From Escherichia coli (GTDB taxonomy: Bacteria > Pseudomonadota > Gammaproteobacteria > Enterobacterales > Enterobacteriaceae): a stretch of 64,000 nt of DNA. The notes below the pieces were generated by a model. It did no database searches. It was not told where the DNA came from and worked only from the letters and a program-made list of their open reading frames with translations. Shown piece by piece: positions 13,656 to 24,051 of the stretch. How positions within the stretch are numbered: the first letter of the stretch is position 1; each line of letters opens with the position of its first letter. The DNA lies in NCBI RefSeq assembly GCF_009931435.1, contig NZ_CP043414.1, one strand, 5' to 3'. Made by a program: the position numbers and the translations under genes.

Positions 13656-13672
13656 ATATTGCCGGATAAAAT

Positions 13673-13710
13673 AAACGCCTCTGTCAGAAATGATGGGGGC
13701 GTTTTTATTT
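13673..13710 (+). terminator. Candidate intrinsic terminator after cysH
   Basis: aaacgcc...ggcgttt stem followed by tttattttg. The loop is long, so confidence is modest. Confidence 0.4.
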
Positions 13711-13918
13711 TGCGAGCCGCATTCCGGCATTTAAACATGAATATAGCAGGGGAAATCAACAGTTATAGAATGGCGTCGGGTGCTTGAGGCTGTCTGGCGT
13801 TGAGCATTCGCGAGGTTCCAGATGGACAAAAGCCCCGGGCGATATTTCTATCAACCTGAGGCTCGCGTTCGAACGTAGCAATTCGAATGTTAGTCTCTTC
13901 TTTGCAGGGAGGCAAGAC

Positions 13919-14071
13919 ATGCTGACAAAATATGCCCTTGTGGCAATCATCGTACTGTGTTGTACAGTACTGGGATTCACGCTGATGGTAGGCGACTCGT
14001 TGTGTGAGTTGAGTATCAGAGAACGTGGTATGGAGTTTAAGGCAGTTCTCGCTTACGAACCGAAGAAGTAG
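13919..14071 (+). CDS. Hok/Gef-family type I toxin (50 aa, HokE-like); likely the hok of a hokX/sokX-type locus
   Basis: [50 protein letters not shown] has a single TM helix and the Hok signature SLCE...AYE. GGGAGG sits 6 nt before the ATG. Confidence 0.7.
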
Positions 14072-14076
14072 CCACC

Positions 14077-14098
14077 ACGCGGGGGTAAAACCCCGCGT
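14077..14098 (+). other. GC-rich stem-loop at the 3-prime end of the hok transcript
   Basis: acgcgggg gtaaaa ccccgcgt, an 8-bp perfect stem immediately after the hok stop. Confidence 0.4.
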
Positions 14099-14109
14099 AT
14101 TGAATTGTG

Positions 14110-14309
14110 ATGGTTTGGTCTCCTGCACCCTTTTTTTCATTTATATTGTTTTTGTGAATATTATGCCTGTGTTTATTATTTATATATATCACAGATGAAA
14201 ATCATTGAATTATTCATAATGTAAATATTTTATTGAACGATATATATCACAGATAATTTTTAATATATGCGTAAATATCCTTTAAGTTTTACTGAAGGAT
14301 AAAAACATT
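14110..14309 (+). promoter_or_regulatory. AT-rich cas3 upstream region with a tandem direct repeat
   Basis: About 200 bp of very AT-rich sequence; atatatatcacagat occurs twice about 60 bp apart (near 14182 and 14242). Confidence 0.35.
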
Positions 14310-16967
14310 GTGACTTTCTTTGATTTCTGGGGAAAAACCCGACGTGGCGAGAAAGAGGGTGGCGACGATTATCACCTTCTTTGCTGGCATTCGCTGGATG
14401 TAGCCGCGATAGGCTATTTAATGGTCAAAAACAACTGTTTCGGGCTGGCTGACTATTTTCGTCAATTAGGTTTCGCTGACACGGATCAGGCAGCACAATT
14501 TTTCGCCTGGTTGTTGTGCTGGCACGATACTGGAAAATTTGCCCGCTCATTTCAGCAACTTTACCTGCACCCACAACTCAAGGTTCCGGAAGGCGCAAGA
14601 AAGAATTACGAAAAGATCTCTCATTCAACGCTGGGTTACTGGTTGTGGCATCATTATTTAATTGAATGTGAAGAGTTGCTTCCTTCATCTTCACTCTCTT
14701 TGCGCAAACTTAAACGAGTAATAGATATGTGGATGCCCGTGACGACCGGGCATCATGGTCGGCCTCCTGACCGTATCGATGAACTGGACAACTTTCTGCC
14801 TGAAGACAAAGCTGCCGCACGGGATTTTCTCCTTGAAATCAAGGTACTGTTTCCGCTCATCGAGATCCCTACATTCTGGGATGATGACGAGGGCGTTGAA
14901 CTTATAAAACATTTTTCCTGGTATATCTCTGCAACCGTCGTACTCGCAGACTGGACGGGATCGTCAACGCGGTTTTTTCCACGCGTTGCACAGGCAATGG
15001 ATATTAAAGATTACTGGCAGAAGGCTTTAGTTCAGGCTCAAAACGCATTAACCGTCTTTCCCCCAAAAGCAGAAAGCGCGCCTTTCACTGGAATTAATAC
15101 GCTGTTTCCTTTTATTGAGAACCCAACACCGTTACAGCAAAAGGTGTTGGATCTGGATATCAGCCAGCCAGGACCACAGTTGTTTATTCTGGAAGATGTG
15201 ACTGGCGCAGGTAAAACAGAAGCGGCGCTTATCCTGGCGCACAGGTTGATGTCTGCGGGGAAAGCACAGGGTTTGTTTTTTGGCCTGCCAACAATGGCAA
15301 CGGCCAATGCCATGTACGATAGGCTGGTAAAAACCTGGCTTGCTTTCTATTCGCCACAATCCCGCCCCAGCCTGGTGCTGGCACACAGCGCTCGTTCGCT
15401 AATGGATCGCTTTAACGCATCGCTGTGGTCTGGTGATTTTGTGGGGTCAGAAGAACCGGATGAACAAGCGTTCAGTCAGGGATGTGCGGCCTGGTTTGCT
15501 GACAGTAACAAGAAGGCGTTGCTGGCTGAAATTGGCGTCGGCACGCTGGATCAGGCGATGATGGCGGTGATGCCGTTCAAACATAATAATCTGCGGCTTC
15601 TGGGGCTGAGTAACAAAATCCTGCTAGCCGATGAGATCCACGCCTGTGACGCTTATATGTCGTGCATTCTTGAAGGGCTGATCGAGCGGCAGGCGCGTGG
15701 CGGAAACAGCGTTATTTTGCTTTCTGCTACGTTGTCTCAACAGCAGCGTGACAAACTCGTCGCCGCCTTTGCGCGTGGTGCAGAGGGCCAGCAAGAAGCT
15801 CCGTTGCTGGAAAAAGATGATTATCCCTGGCTGACGCATGTCACGAAATCCGATGTGCATTCGCACCGGGTAGCGACGCGCAAAGACGTTGAGCGCAGCG
15901 TGAGTGTGGGTTGGCTTCATAGCGAACAAGAGTGTATTGCGCGTATCGAATCGGCGGTAAGTCAGGGGAAATGCATCGCCTGGATTCGGAATTCTGTCGA
16001 TGACGCCATCCAGGTTCATCGTCAGCTGCTTGCCCGCGGCGTCATTCCTGCTTCCAGCCTTTCACTTTTTCATAGCCGCTTTGCTTTCAGCGATCGCCAG
16101 CGAATTGAAACGGAGACGCTGGCACGCTTTGGTAAAGAAGACTGTTCACAGCGTGCCGGAAAAGTCCTCATTTGTACTCAGGTCCTGGAGCAGAGCGTCG
16201 ACTGCGACCTGGACGAAATGATTTCCGACCTTGCCCCTGTTGATTTACTGATCCAGCGAGCAGGGCGATTACAGCGACATATCCGCGATATTAATGGTCA
16301 GTTAAAGCGTGACGGTAAAGACGAGCGTCACCCTCCTGTATTGCTGATTCTGGCCCCCGTCTGGAACGACTCTCCGGGTGAAGAATGGTTTGGCTGTGCC
16401 ATGCGTAACAGTGCATTTGTCTATCCCGATCATGGGCGAATCTGGTTGACGCAGCGTGTGCTGCGTGAACAAGGCGCGATTCAGATGCCACACTCAGCCC
16501 GGCTTCTGATTGAATCAGTCTACGGTGAGGACGTGGTAATGCCGGAAGGGTTTGCCCGCAGCGAGCAGGAGCAAGTGGGCAAATACTACTGCGATCGTTC
16601 AATGGCTAATAAGTTTGTGCTGAACTTCAGGCCCGGCTATGCCGCCAATATCAACGATTACCTCCCGGAAAAACTGTCGACACGTCTGGCTGAAGAGTCT
16701 GTTTCCCTGTGGCTGGCTAGCTGTATTGGCGGTGTGGTGAAGCCTTATGCCACCGGTGCACACGCATGGGAAATGAGCGTTGTCAGAGTGCGCCAAAGCT
16801 GGTGGAAAAAACATCGGGATAAGTTTTCTTTACTGGAAGGGGATGCGTTCAGGCAGTGGTGCGTTGAACAGCGGCAAGATCCGGAGATGGCAAACGTGAT
16901 TTTGGTCACCGATGACGAAAGTTGTGGATATTCGGCTACGGAGGGATTGATTGGCAAGGTTGGTTGA
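14310..16967 (+). CDS. cas3: Type I-E CRISPR-associated nuclease/helicase Cas3 (885 aa)
   Basis: ORF track 14310..16967 (GTG start). HD motifs (LLCWHSLDVAA, WHDTGKF), Walker A (GAGKTEAAL) and DExH (DEIH) present. N-terminus resembles Salmonella-type Cas3 rather than K-12 YgcB (from memory). Confidence 0.9.
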   Translation: MTFFDFWGKTRRGEKEGGDDYHLLCWHSLDVAAIGYLMVKNNCFGLADYFRQLGFADTDQAAQFFAWLLCWHDTGKFARSFQQLYLHPQLKVPEGARKNYEKISHSTLGYWLWHHYLIECEELLPSSSLSLRKLKRVIDMWMPVTTGHHGRPPDRIDELDNFLPEDKAAARDFLLEIKVLFPLIEIPTFWDDDEGVELIKHFSWYISATVVLADWTGSSTRFFPRVAQAMDIKDYWQKALVQAQNALTVFPPKAESAPFTGINTLFPFIENPTPLQQKVLDLDISQPGPQLFILEDVTGAGKTEAALILAHRLMSAGKAQGLFFGLPTMATANAMYDRLVKTWLAFYSPQSRPSLVLAHSARSLMDRFNASLWSGDFVGSEEPDEQAFSQGCAAWFADSNKKALLAEIGVGTLDQAMMAVMPFKHNNLRLLGLSNKILLADEIHACDAYMSCILEGLIERQARGGNSVILLSATLSQQQRDKLVAAFARGAEGQQEAPLLEKDDYPWLTHVTKSDVHSHRVATRKDVERSVSVGWLHSEQECIARIESAVSQGKCIAWIRNSVDDAIQVHRQLLARGVIPASSLSLFHSRFAFSDRQRIETETLARFGKEDCSQRAGKVLICTQVLEQSVDCDLDEMISDLAPVDLLIQRAGRLQRHIRDINGQLKRDGKDERHPPVLLILAPVWNDSPGEEWFGCAMRNSAFVYPDHGRIWLTQRVLREQGAIQMPHSARLLIESVYGEDVVMPEGFARSEQEQVGKYYCDRSMANKFVLNFRPGYAANINDYLPEKLSTRLAEESVSLWLASCIGGVVKPYATGAHAWEMSVVRVRQSWWKKHRDKFSLLEGDAFRQWCVEQRQDPEMANVILVTDDESCGYSATEGLIGKVG

Positions 16968-17063
16968 TATGCCTGCGACAGGATTCTCTGAATAGTTGAT
17001 ACACAAAAAAGGATGGAAGGATGGATAACCGACCTGGGATGGTCTTTTTACGAGAGGATGCGT

Positions 17064-22924: not shown

Positions 22925-24051
22925 GTGTTCCCCGCGCCAGCGGGGATAAACCGTGGATTATGACGCCAGAGAGCTTCCTGTTTGCGTGTTCCCCGCGCCA
23001 GCGGGGATAAACCGCTGGCTAATAACATCCCACTGAATATTATTTCGTGTTCCCCGCGCCAGCGGGGATAAACCGAGGTGTGGCATGCGGGGAATTATGA
23101 TCCGGTAGTGTTCCCCGCGCCAGCGGGGATAAACCGTGACAACGGCCGGCCGCTCTTTTTGCGGTCATGTGTTCCCCGCGCCAGCGGGGATAAACCGATC
23201 ATCGGCATCATCTCGTGATACTCATCCGGCGTGTTCCCCGCGCCAGCGGGGATAAACCGCCCAGGCTTTACGTGAGCTGGCGGATGTGGCCGTGTTCCCC
23301 GCGCCAGCGGGGATAAACCATACGGTCAAGCGATATCAGGGGTACTGTGTCGTGTTCCCCGCGCCAGCGGGGATAAACCGGGCGCCGCATCTTTATCGTA
23401 AAGCATGTAAAGGTGTTCCCCGCGCCAGCGGGGATAAACCGACCGCTCACACCCAGACAAGCGCCACTAACGTGTGTTCCCCGCGCCAGCGGGGATAAAC
23501 CGAACGCCGCATCAGCTAAATACGCTAAAAAAATGTGTTCCCCGCGCCAGCGGGGATAAACCGCGGCTGATACTCAGGAGCAGGCCAGAGAGCGTGTGTT
23601 CCCCGCGCCAGCGGGGATAAACCGTACCACCTGTGTATTGAGTTACGTCGCCGGGGGTGTTCCCCGCGCCAGCGGGGATAAACCGGAGCTTCATCGGTGG
23701 TTCTGGGAGCAACGGGAGTGTTCCCCGCGCCAGCGGGGATAAACCGGCACAAGTGACTACATCAAGGATGGGGAATGGGTGTTCCCCGCGCCAGCGGGGA
23801 TAAACCGATTAACATTGCAATTGAATTGACGCGTATGAGGTGTTCCCCGCGCCAGCGGGGATAAACCGCAGGCAGCACGGCGGGTTTTGCCCGGATATTT
23901 GTGTTCCCCGCGCCAGCGGGGATAAACCGCAAAACCAATAGGTGCTTTCCACATTGCAGAAGTGTTCCCCGCGCCAGCGGGGATAAACCGCTCTCGGTTC
24001 TGGGGTACTGTTACCCATAACTGAGCTCCCCCGCGTCAGCGGGGGAACTCC
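22925..24051 (+). CRISPR. Type I-E CRISPR array: 19 repeats (18 canonical plus one degenerate terminal repeat), 18 spacers
   Basis: 29-nt repeat gtgttccccgcgccagcggggataaaccg at a 61-nt period from 22925; spacers 31-33 nt. Terminal repeat gagctcccccgcgtcagcgggggaactcc is degenerate; one internal repeat near 23292 ends in A instead of G. Confidence 0.95.

Follow-up and report, generated by a model that had tools for sequence, protein, structure and literature searches.

The AT-rich DNA upstream of cas3 in the 64-kb stretch of Escherichia coli chromosome analyzed here (hereafter the window) contains a 15-mer in two identical copies, and only the copy proximal to the gene is conserved. We consider it somewhat probable that positions 14138–14309 constitute the cas3 promoter and leader and that the proximal 15-mer alone is functional, as part of a class II CRP-type site. 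This reading is carried by the unequal conservation of the two copies and by the recurrence of the same half-sites, at the same position, upstream of cas3 in other genera. Nearly all that is known about the regulation of type I-E cas genes concerns K-12, whose cas3 allele and both of whose cas promoter regions are non-homologous to the variant carried by approximately half of complete E. coli genomes, including O157:H7. Our literature searches found no study of the non-K-12 cas3 promoter and no mapped transcription start or regulator binding for it.

The repeat lies in the cas cassette of a non-K-12 type I-E locus

The window is E. coli chromosome, and a 601-bp query taken from around the repeat has a full or partial match in 5,425 of the 5,426 complete E. 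coli genomes. The gene order is cysJ-cysI-cysH, a hok/sok toxin–antitoxin locus, cas3, casA, the other type I-E cas genes, a CRISPR array (22925–23929), iap, and cysD. The 5′ part of the hok mRNA and the sok antisense region, which belong to a hokX-type locus, occupy 13778–13934 (+ strand); the Rfam family RF01794 'sok' scores 103 bits over this interval (gathering score 59), and sokX is annotated at the homologous place in K-12. The hok coding sequence (13919–14071, + strand) specifies a 50-aa protein of the Hok/Gef family, with RefSeq WP_000956458.1 at the homologous position in four relatives. The next segment (14072–14137, + strand), which represents the 3′ region of the hok mRNA and the left boundary of the cas cassette, is made up of a GC stem-loop at ≈14078–14098, a 3′ fold-back element, and a T-run, and it is invariant in the E. 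coli allele alignment. From hok biology, we infer that it carries the fold-back (fbi) element of the hok mRNA.

In E. coli strains that have no cas genes, the match to the window stops at 14137 and is followed by iap, and the AT-rich DNA at 14138–14309 therefore belongs to the cas cassette rather than to hok. This putative cas3 upstream regulatory region (14138–14309, + strand), delimited by its composition and by its movement with the cas cassette, has a GC content of 19.8% versus 52% for the window as a whole. A preliminary description of this DNA had placed roughly 200 bp of very AT-rich sequence before cas3; the composition is as described, and the extent is 172 bp. The region is found in 2,775 of the 5,426 complete E. 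coli genomes, in a single copy each and always on the chromosome.

The downstream gene (14310–16967, + strand) is a non-K-12 type I-E allele of cas3 that begins with GTG. Its 885-aa open reading frame contains the Pfam Cas3_HD and Cas3 C-terminal domains, and its relatives bear the name Cas3. The encoded protein shares 29% amino acid identity with K-12 Cas3, consistent with a published distinction between two type I-E variants in E. coli (PMC12736100). In K-12, unrelated DNA replaces everything from the hok start codon onward. The gap between cas3 and casA also differs, at 45 bp in the window versus 415 bp in K-12; the K-12 region is non-homologous, and the window allele has no counterpart of the K-12 Pcas promoter.

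An exact 15-mer repeat upstream of cas3

The sequence ATATATATCACAGAT occurs exactly twice on the + strand, at 14182–14196 and 14240–14254, with a start-to-start distance of 58 bp. The preliminary description had pointed to two identical 15-mers in the AT-rich DNA before cas3, and they are indeed exact copies; the first lies where it was placed, whereas the second begins at 14240 rather than 14242, giving a spacing of 58 bp rather than ≈60 bp. A search of the 64-kb window that allowed up to three mismatches found no third copy, at other promoters or elsewhere. Apart from the CRISPR array, the pair is also the only exact direct repeat of at least 15 bp within 100 bp in the window. Among 5,000 dinucleotide-preserving shuffles of 14138–14309, only two (0.04%; P ≈ 4e-4) produced a close direct repeat of this length or longer, so low GC content by itself is insufficient to explain the repeat.

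The similarity between the copies is confined to the 15-mer. Local alignment of the flanks, compared with shuffles, gave P = 0.07 and P = 0.49, and Tandem Repeats Finder detected no array at the two copies. A 58-bp tandem duplication was rejected on these grounds and, because the flanks of the two copies are dissimilar, the repeat represents neither a tandem duplication nor a conserved pair of sites. We also rejected a target-site duplication or MITE, given that a mobile element would not fit into the 43-bp interval and that the length of the region is unchanged in alleles with a diverged distal copy. The repeat is not part of the hok/sok RNAs either, as both copies lie past the 3′ end of the hok mRNA and the tract is absent from cas-less strains. 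Rfam searches identified no known RNA family in the AT-rich tract, the matches being to sok and, below threshold, to a ctRNA on the cysH terminator. Inspection by eye revealed no likeness to the CRISPR repeat GTGTTCCCCGCGCCAGCGGGGATAAACCG past GATAA.

The proximal and distal copies differ in conservation

The proximal copy (14240–14254, + strand) comprises A14240, which is the last base of the predicted left half-site discussed below, a 6-bp spacer, the right half TCACA, and GAT. Alignments of 9 and then 11 alleles show no variation in it among E. coli and a single change in Escherichia sp. MOD1. From 14239 to cas3, the aligned E. coli alleles are invariant except for one A/T site, one C/T site, and the length of a T-run. 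More broadly, identity over the 74-bp proximal block (14236–14309) reaches 95% or more in 2,672 of 2,773 genomes, does not fall below 90% in any of them, and is 100% in Pseudocitrobacter.

The distal copy (14182–14196, + strand) is a lineage-specific look-alike that is not conserved. It is exact in only ≈6 of the 2,774 E. coli genomes that have the region, strain 2013C-4282 among them, and the 102 bp around it are at least 99% identical in 6 of these genomes, 95–99% identical in 9, and less than 90% identical in 1,672. The aligned alleles contain at least seven different forms of it, including ATATATATCACCAAT, ATATATTTTATAGAT, ATATATATTACGGAT, and ATATATATTACTGAT elsewhere in E. coli, TATGAATTTCAAAT in the O157 clade, ATATATATTACAGAT in Escherichia sp. 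MOD1, and ATTTGTATTTCAAAT in Pseudocitrobacter. In most E. coli, it agrees with the proximal copy at 9–13 of the 15 positions; the changes in it include T to C at 14190 and variation at 14192–14193. Compared with O157, the distal segment is 80.6% identical and cas3 third codon positions are 82.6% identical, versus 91.9% for the proximal block. The proximal copy is thus conserved while the distal copy diverges at approximately the rate of cas3 third codon positions; the exact repeat characterizes a rare lineage, in which a small number of substitutions would have made the distal match perfect.

Read as a CRP-type site, the distal copy yields ATTTA-tatata-TCACA (14178–14193), followed after 21 nt by CATAAT (14215–14220), and it does not have the left-half GA that every orthologue has at the proximal site. 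In addition, the 58 bp between the copies correspond to 5.5 helical turns, and two bound proteins would therefore sit on opposite faces of the DNA. Two equivalent, paired sites or duplicated promoter elements, as initially proposed, do not fit a distal copy that is hypervariable, rarely exact, and devoid of the left-half GA. The idea of a regulator site holds up for one copy, which very probably belongs to such a site within the core promoter, and the pairing of sites does not hold up. Because the left-half G is absent, the sequence is not conserved, and the distance from the proximal site is 5.5 turns, we judge that the distal copy probably has no function of its own; it may have a lineage-specific effect.

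A predicted CRP/FNR-type site recurs across genera

A CRP/FNR-family palindrome, AACGA-tatata-TCACA (14236–14251, + strand), is predicted with its center at 14243.5; its spacer and its perfect right half, TCACA, lie within the proximal 15-mer. Within and next to this site, GA (14239–14240) and TCACAGA (14247–14253) are invariant in E. coli and E. albertii. The latter species, despite being far more diverged upstream of cas3, retains GA...TCACAGA and TGC.TAAA.

For the comparison across genera, we assembled 11 non-E. coli regions upstream of genes for Cas3 orthologues with 55–90% amino acid identity, by protein search and retrieval of the contigs; a Cas3 search of genome contigs yielded three close relatives only, and the more distant orthologues came from the protein search. 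Apart from the site, these regions cannot be aligned with the window. Sites resembling xxxGA-N6-TCACA are nevertheless present 70–79 nt before the start codon in E. albertii, Salmonella, C. rodentium, Raoultella, Kluyvera, Phytobacter, and one further contig. The sites of E. albertii (GGCGA-cgctca-TCACA), Salmonella (GTTGA-tacaaa-TCACA), C. rodentium (GTTGA-ttgaaa-TCACA), and Kluyvera (TTTGA-ggtata-TCAAA) each match the CRP core at 8 of 10 positions, as does that of the E. coli O157 clade (GCTGA-tatata-TCACA). Phytobacter has 9 of 10 matches (GGTGA-tttaaa-TCACA), and Raoultella (GCTGA-gataaa-TTACA) and the further contig, whose Cas3 shows 75% amino acid identity (AGCGA-tattta-TCACG), have 7 of 10. 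The window site (AACGA-tatata-TCACA) likewise matches at only 7 of 10 positions, its right half being perfect and its left half, AACGA, retaining just the GA. This match quality is common by chance, occurring three times in the window's own cas3 upstream region, including at the distal copy.

Position sets the cross-genus sites apart. Sites with at least 7 of 10 core matches that start in the 17-nt bin from −82 to −66 occur in 7 of the 11 regions versus 0.66 expected from shuffles (P ≈ 7e-7), and sites with at least 8 of 10 matches in 6 regions versus 0.07 expected (P ≈ 2e-11), although these shuffle nulls ignore shared ancestry and the P values therefore overstate independence. Other position bins contain 0–3 such sites. 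That the flanks are not conserved argues for a signal that is selective. In the site-anchored alignment, the half-sites carry 1.29 bits per position versus 0.35–0.64 in the non-site flanks, with the information concentrated in GA and TCAC(A), and the 6-bp spacer varies. Half-sites that are kept while spacer and flanks drift are the signature of a dimeric, palindrome-binding protein.

The site is not universal. Four of the 11 orthologues have no CRP-type site in the −82 to −66 bin: K. pneumoniae reaches 6 of 10 matches, in Enterobacter and C. amalonaticus the site has shifted, to −91 and −98, and Cronobacter lacks one. The proximal copy overlaps a conserved element, probably an activator site for a CRP-family protein in the core promoter of cas3. 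CRP had been named at the outset among the proteins worth testing, and it appears to be the best candidate for the proximal site.

Predicted core promoter, leader, and start codon

The palindrome lies 21 nt upstream of AAATAT (14273–14278, + strand), a predicted −10 hexamer counted from the end of TCACA, which would make this a class II activator-dependent promoter with its site centered at −41.5. Exactly 21 nt after the right half, the window, K-12, and 7 of 10 orthologue rows of the site-anchored alignment, in which E. coli is counted once, have a hexamer whose second base is A and whose sixth is T; the (g)cgt that precedes it is often retained as well. In the remaining three rows (Salmonella, K. 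pneumoniae, and Kluyvera), such a hexamer does not occur at exactly 21 nt. With the site at −41.5, the geometry predicts that cas3 transcription starts at A/A/G (14284–14286, + strand), at ≈14285. The AAG at these positions is common to E. coli and E. albertii. The resulting leader would be ≈25 nt long and would place a Shine–Dalgarno sequence, AAGGA (14295–14299, + strand), which was read from the sequence and is invariant in E. coli, ahead of the GTG at 14310.

Several other arrangements of promoter elements were considered. TCACA was rejected as the σ70 −35 element for AAATAT because the spacer to the conserved hexamer would be 20–21 bp, and TTGAAC (14234–14239) was rejected as a −35 element because no more than 12 bp separate it from GATAAT and its own sequence varies. 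A consensus scan identified a σ70-like TTGTGA-16-TATTAT (14152–14179, + strand), whose start, if it is active, would fall inside the distal copy; TGTGAATAT and TTTAT.AT at this site are invariant among 9 aligned E. coli. The same scan of the upstream region found two σ70-like sites versus 2.0 expected in shuffles. As alternative −10-like hexamers, GATAAT (14252–14257) and the TATTAT of 14152–14179 both match, and DNA of 20% GC is full of such hexamers.

The predicted 5′ leader also contains a T-run polymorphism (14287–14290, + strand), with TTTT in the window and TTT in most E. coli, and its length sets whether an upstream ATG at 14267 is in frame with cas3. An N-terminal extension of Cas3 from this ATG was rejected. 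It is out of frame in the window, Pseudocitrobacter, Escherichia sp. MOD1, and E. albertii, and cas3 orthologues from seven other genera are annotated with the homologous GTG or TTG as their start codon. In the lineage of the window, RefSeq contains pseudogene calls of a 'frameshifted cas3' that apparently reflect the choice of the wrong start codon.

Comparison with known promoters

The K-12 cas3 promoter has a CRP site that was studied by EMSA, footprinting, site-mutant reporters, and a crp deletion; CRP activates there, mutation of the site cut activity 3.5-fold, and the DNase footprint overlaps the predicted CRP core by 4 nt only (Yang et al. 2020, Viruses 12:90, PMC7019758). The two promoter regions lie at the same position relative to the same gene, and each contains a weak palindrome of the CRP type that matches the core at 7 of 10 positions. 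In K-12, this palindrome begins ≈67–74 nt before the start codon, and the hexamer GATAAT lies 21 nt after its right half; the −41.5 placement of the K-12 site is our own count from an assumed −10. The DNA itself, however, is non-homologous, with TATGA-gcagca-TCGAA in K-12 versus AACGA-tatata-TCACA in the window, and the K-12 cas3 upstream region is only 133 bp long and less AT-rich. On account of its position, we regard the proximal 15-mer as the counterpart of the published K-12 CRP site.

Pcas, the K-12 casA (cse1) promoter, resembles the window region in being an AT-rich regulatory region of an E. coli type I-E cas locus, and it is the system to which the preliminary description alluded. 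According to passages in PMC4782391 and PMC12968389 that cite Pul 2010, Westra 2010, and Yang 2014, H-NS silences Pcas, LeuO or LrhA lifts the silencing, and CRP binds there. It differs in lying within the 415-bp K-12 cas3–casA gap, whereas the window repeat is upstream of cas3, and in that CRP is a repressor at K-12 Pcas. Salmonella carries a cas3 of the same family as the window (≈69–74% amino acid identity), with GTTGA-tacaaa-TCACA at the equivalent position, but its cas3–cse1 gap is ≈425 bp and has its own promoter.

At class II CRP- or FNR-dependent promoters, such as galP1 and melR, the activator site is centered at −41.5. The window shares with these promoters a 5-N6-5 palindrome with a variable spacer, a right half 21 nt from the (here predicted) −10 hexamer, and no recognizable −35 element. 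It differs from them in its very degenerate left half-site, and its −41.5 placement is a prediction.

Discussion

In the mechanism that we favor, cas3 would be activated by cAMP-CRP, the protein most likely to occupy the proximal site. With only 45 bp between cas3 and casA, transcription from this promoter may continue into the downstream cas genes and across the operon. Activation by CRP would presumably have to overcome a background of H-NS silencing over the AT-rich tract. The tract has the composition of H-NS-silenced cas promoters (19.8% GC over 172 bp versus 52%), and silencing of 14138–14309 is a reasonable inference that fits both this composition and published work on relatives. An hns effect on cas3 is described in passages of PMC8039139 for S. 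Typhi, and an hns effect on CRISPR-Cas is reported for K. pneumoniae (PMC4987720), whose Cas3 belongs to the same family and is 70% identical to that of the window. For K-12, the H-NS and LeuO data concern Pcas in the cas3–casA spacer (PMC4782391, PMC12968389).

A protein other than CRP may occupy the proximal element, namely FNR or another member of the CRP/FNR family, which would tie cas3 to oxygen rather than to cAMP. The left halves read TTGAT or TTGAG in Salmonella, C. rodentium, Kluyvera, and K. pneumoniae, where FNR core matches of 8–9 of 10 equal or exceed the CRP matches, and the class II geometry is identical for the two proteins. By sequence, core matches are thus unable to separate CRP from FNR. 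We nonetheless think FNR unlikely: ATCAC, a right half of the CRP type, is present in all E. coli and in 7 of 10 orthologues, the sites of Phytobacter and Enterobacter read GTGAT...ATCAC, and the sole experimental data on any cas3 promoter point to CRP (PMC7019758). A further proposal treats the tract as a silencing platform only, with the 15-mers as nucleation sites for H-NS or LeuO and the proximal conservation reflecting sites for these proteins. The tract is 80% AT, and ACGATATATA (14237–14246) resembles what we take to be the high-affinity H-NS motif, TCGATATATT/tCGATAAATT; the published hns effects in the Salmonella and Klebsiella relatives point the same way. Across genera, however, only GA and TCACA are kept, as would be expected of a dimeric reader of a palindrome and not of a protein that binds AT tracts, and the distal half is just as AT-rich yet is not conserved. 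A purely silencing role is therefore quite unlikely in our estimation; the presence of an activator site is in any case compatible with H-NS silencing along the entire tract.

The two remaining explanations treat the copies alike. If the 15-mers functioned as a pair, they would act together at a fixed spacing, either as two operators bound by the same regulator or as duplicated copies of a promoter module. The 15-mer is statistically non-random, and in the lineage of the window a −10-like hexamer lies 21 nt after each copy (CATAAT at 14215–14220 and AAATAT at 14273–14278), such that the duplicated promoter elements initially proposed can literally be seen in this sequence. The behavior of the distal copy, which is hypervariable outside ≈6 of 2,774 genomes and diverges at approximately the cas3 third-codon rate, speaks against a pair, as do its left half without the conserved GA, the dissimilar flanks that exclude a 58-bp duplication, and the 5.5-turn spacing that puts the copies on opposite faces. 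No non-E. coli orthologue has a second site upstream of the conserved one, and we regard a functional pair as very unlikely. Conversely, neither copy might be specific, the repeat being a mutational by-product in AT-rich DNA and the proximal block being conserved through linkage to cas3 or through the −10 and leader. The neutral behavior of the distal copy, the low complexity of ATATATAT, and the frequency of 7-of-10 core matches are all in keeping with this idea. It does not readily account for the same half-sites at the same position in genera that are otherwise unalignable upstream, nor for a proximal block that is more conserved than cas3 third codon positions, and we give it very little weight. 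Sites for Fur, Lrp, IHF, PhoP, and CpxR were considered by eye and dropped because partial matches are expected in DNA of 20% GC.

For the repeat itself, the outcome is deflationary, in that the exact repeat is a strain-level accident on top of what we take to be one real site. The comparison yields a concrete target in the form of GA-N6-TCACA at 14239–14251 and a predicted start at ≈14285. It also suggests that CRP-type activation at the class II position is conserved in Enterobacteriaceae cas3 promoters, even where the DNA has been replaced.

A bolder version of the favored mechanism, which we hold to be doubtful, is that a conserved class II promoter dependent on CRP or a CRP-family protein drives the whole operon from cas3 to cas2, that cAMP/CRP is the ancestral and most widespread input to CRISPR, and that the distal copy alters expression. 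If this were true, the substitutions that perfected the distal copy in the rare lineage would provide a further TCACA half-site together with a CATAAT module that alters expression. The main input to CRISPR immunity in non-K-12 E. coli and in many Enterobacteriaceae would then be cAMP/CRP and not the LeuO/Pcas switch of K-12.

A likely GTG start for cas3

The start region of cas3 in the window (14267-14312; compared with loci L001 and L014-L017) contains a short T-run that begins at 14287. In most E. coli, this run is TTT (14287-14289), which places an upstream ATG at 14267 in frame with cas3 and gives a RefSeq Cas3 of 899 amino acids. The lineage of the window carries TTTT (14287-14290), a form shared with Pseudocitrobacter, Escherichia sp. 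MOD1, and E. albertii; in RefSeq, cas3 of the window lineage is marked as a "frameshifted" pseudogene. Because the gene calls of seven other genera begin cas3 at the homologous GTG or TTG, translation of the window's cas3 likely starts at the GTG at 14310, and the marking of this lineage's gene as a pseudogene is probably an annotation artefact.

Possible transfer, and insertions, around the upstream tract

The Cas3 protein of Pseudocitrobacter vendiensis (locus L011, 2230-3700) shares 95% amino acid identity with that of the window, and the proximal 74-bp promoter block (14236-14309) is 100% identical between the two, whereas the hok region is only ~61% identical. This disparity in sequence conservation suggests that the cas cassette recently passed from one genus to another.

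The AT-rich tract preceding cas3 (14138-14309) is adjoined by a hokX-type hok/sok locus (13778-14137), made up of an Rfam match to sok, a Hok ORF of 50 aa, and a fold-back element at the 3' end, that is apparently intact in the window. In K-12, by contrast, sokX alone remains, because the K-12 cas3 allele took the place of all the sequence from the hok start codon on. In several E. coli strains (L006, L007, and L014), an IS421 element (IS4-like) has inserted after the hok stop codon and ahead of the 3' fold-back element of the hok mRNA, at window position ~14081 and ~230 bp upstream of cas3. This insertion cuts hok off from its 3' end, with possible effects on the control of hok and on read-through into cas3. 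A further case of IS traffic around the tract is found in E. coli PE164, where an IS3-family element (L008, 1957-3213) interrupts the 5' end of cas3 near window position 14375, a short distance downstream of the promoter region. Upstream of hok/sok, an Rfam match to ctRNA_p42d at 13671-13713 scored 30 bits, below the gathering score of 50, and overlies the cysH terminator hairpin; it is most likely a chance stem-loop match.

The cas3-casA junction

Tandem Repeats Finder identified a perfect tandem of AAGGATGG (two copies, 17009-17025) covering the casA start codon and its ribosome-binding site. The tandem yields two alternative in-phase SD/ATG combinations.

The gap between cas3 and casA spans 45 bp in the window (16968-17012; compared with L010 and L018-L027), as opposed to 415 bp in K-12; Salmonella, C. 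rodentium, Raoultella, and Cronobacter have ~425-500 bp here. The corresponding gap is ~11-28 bp for K. pneumoniae, Phytobacter, C. amalonaticus, and Enterobacter, and Kluyvera has no gap, its cas3 and casA overlapping by 4 nt. Given this difference in length from K-12, the K-12 Pcas/anti-Pcas region is without a counterpart in the window allele, and the tract upstream of cas3 may act for the entire operon.
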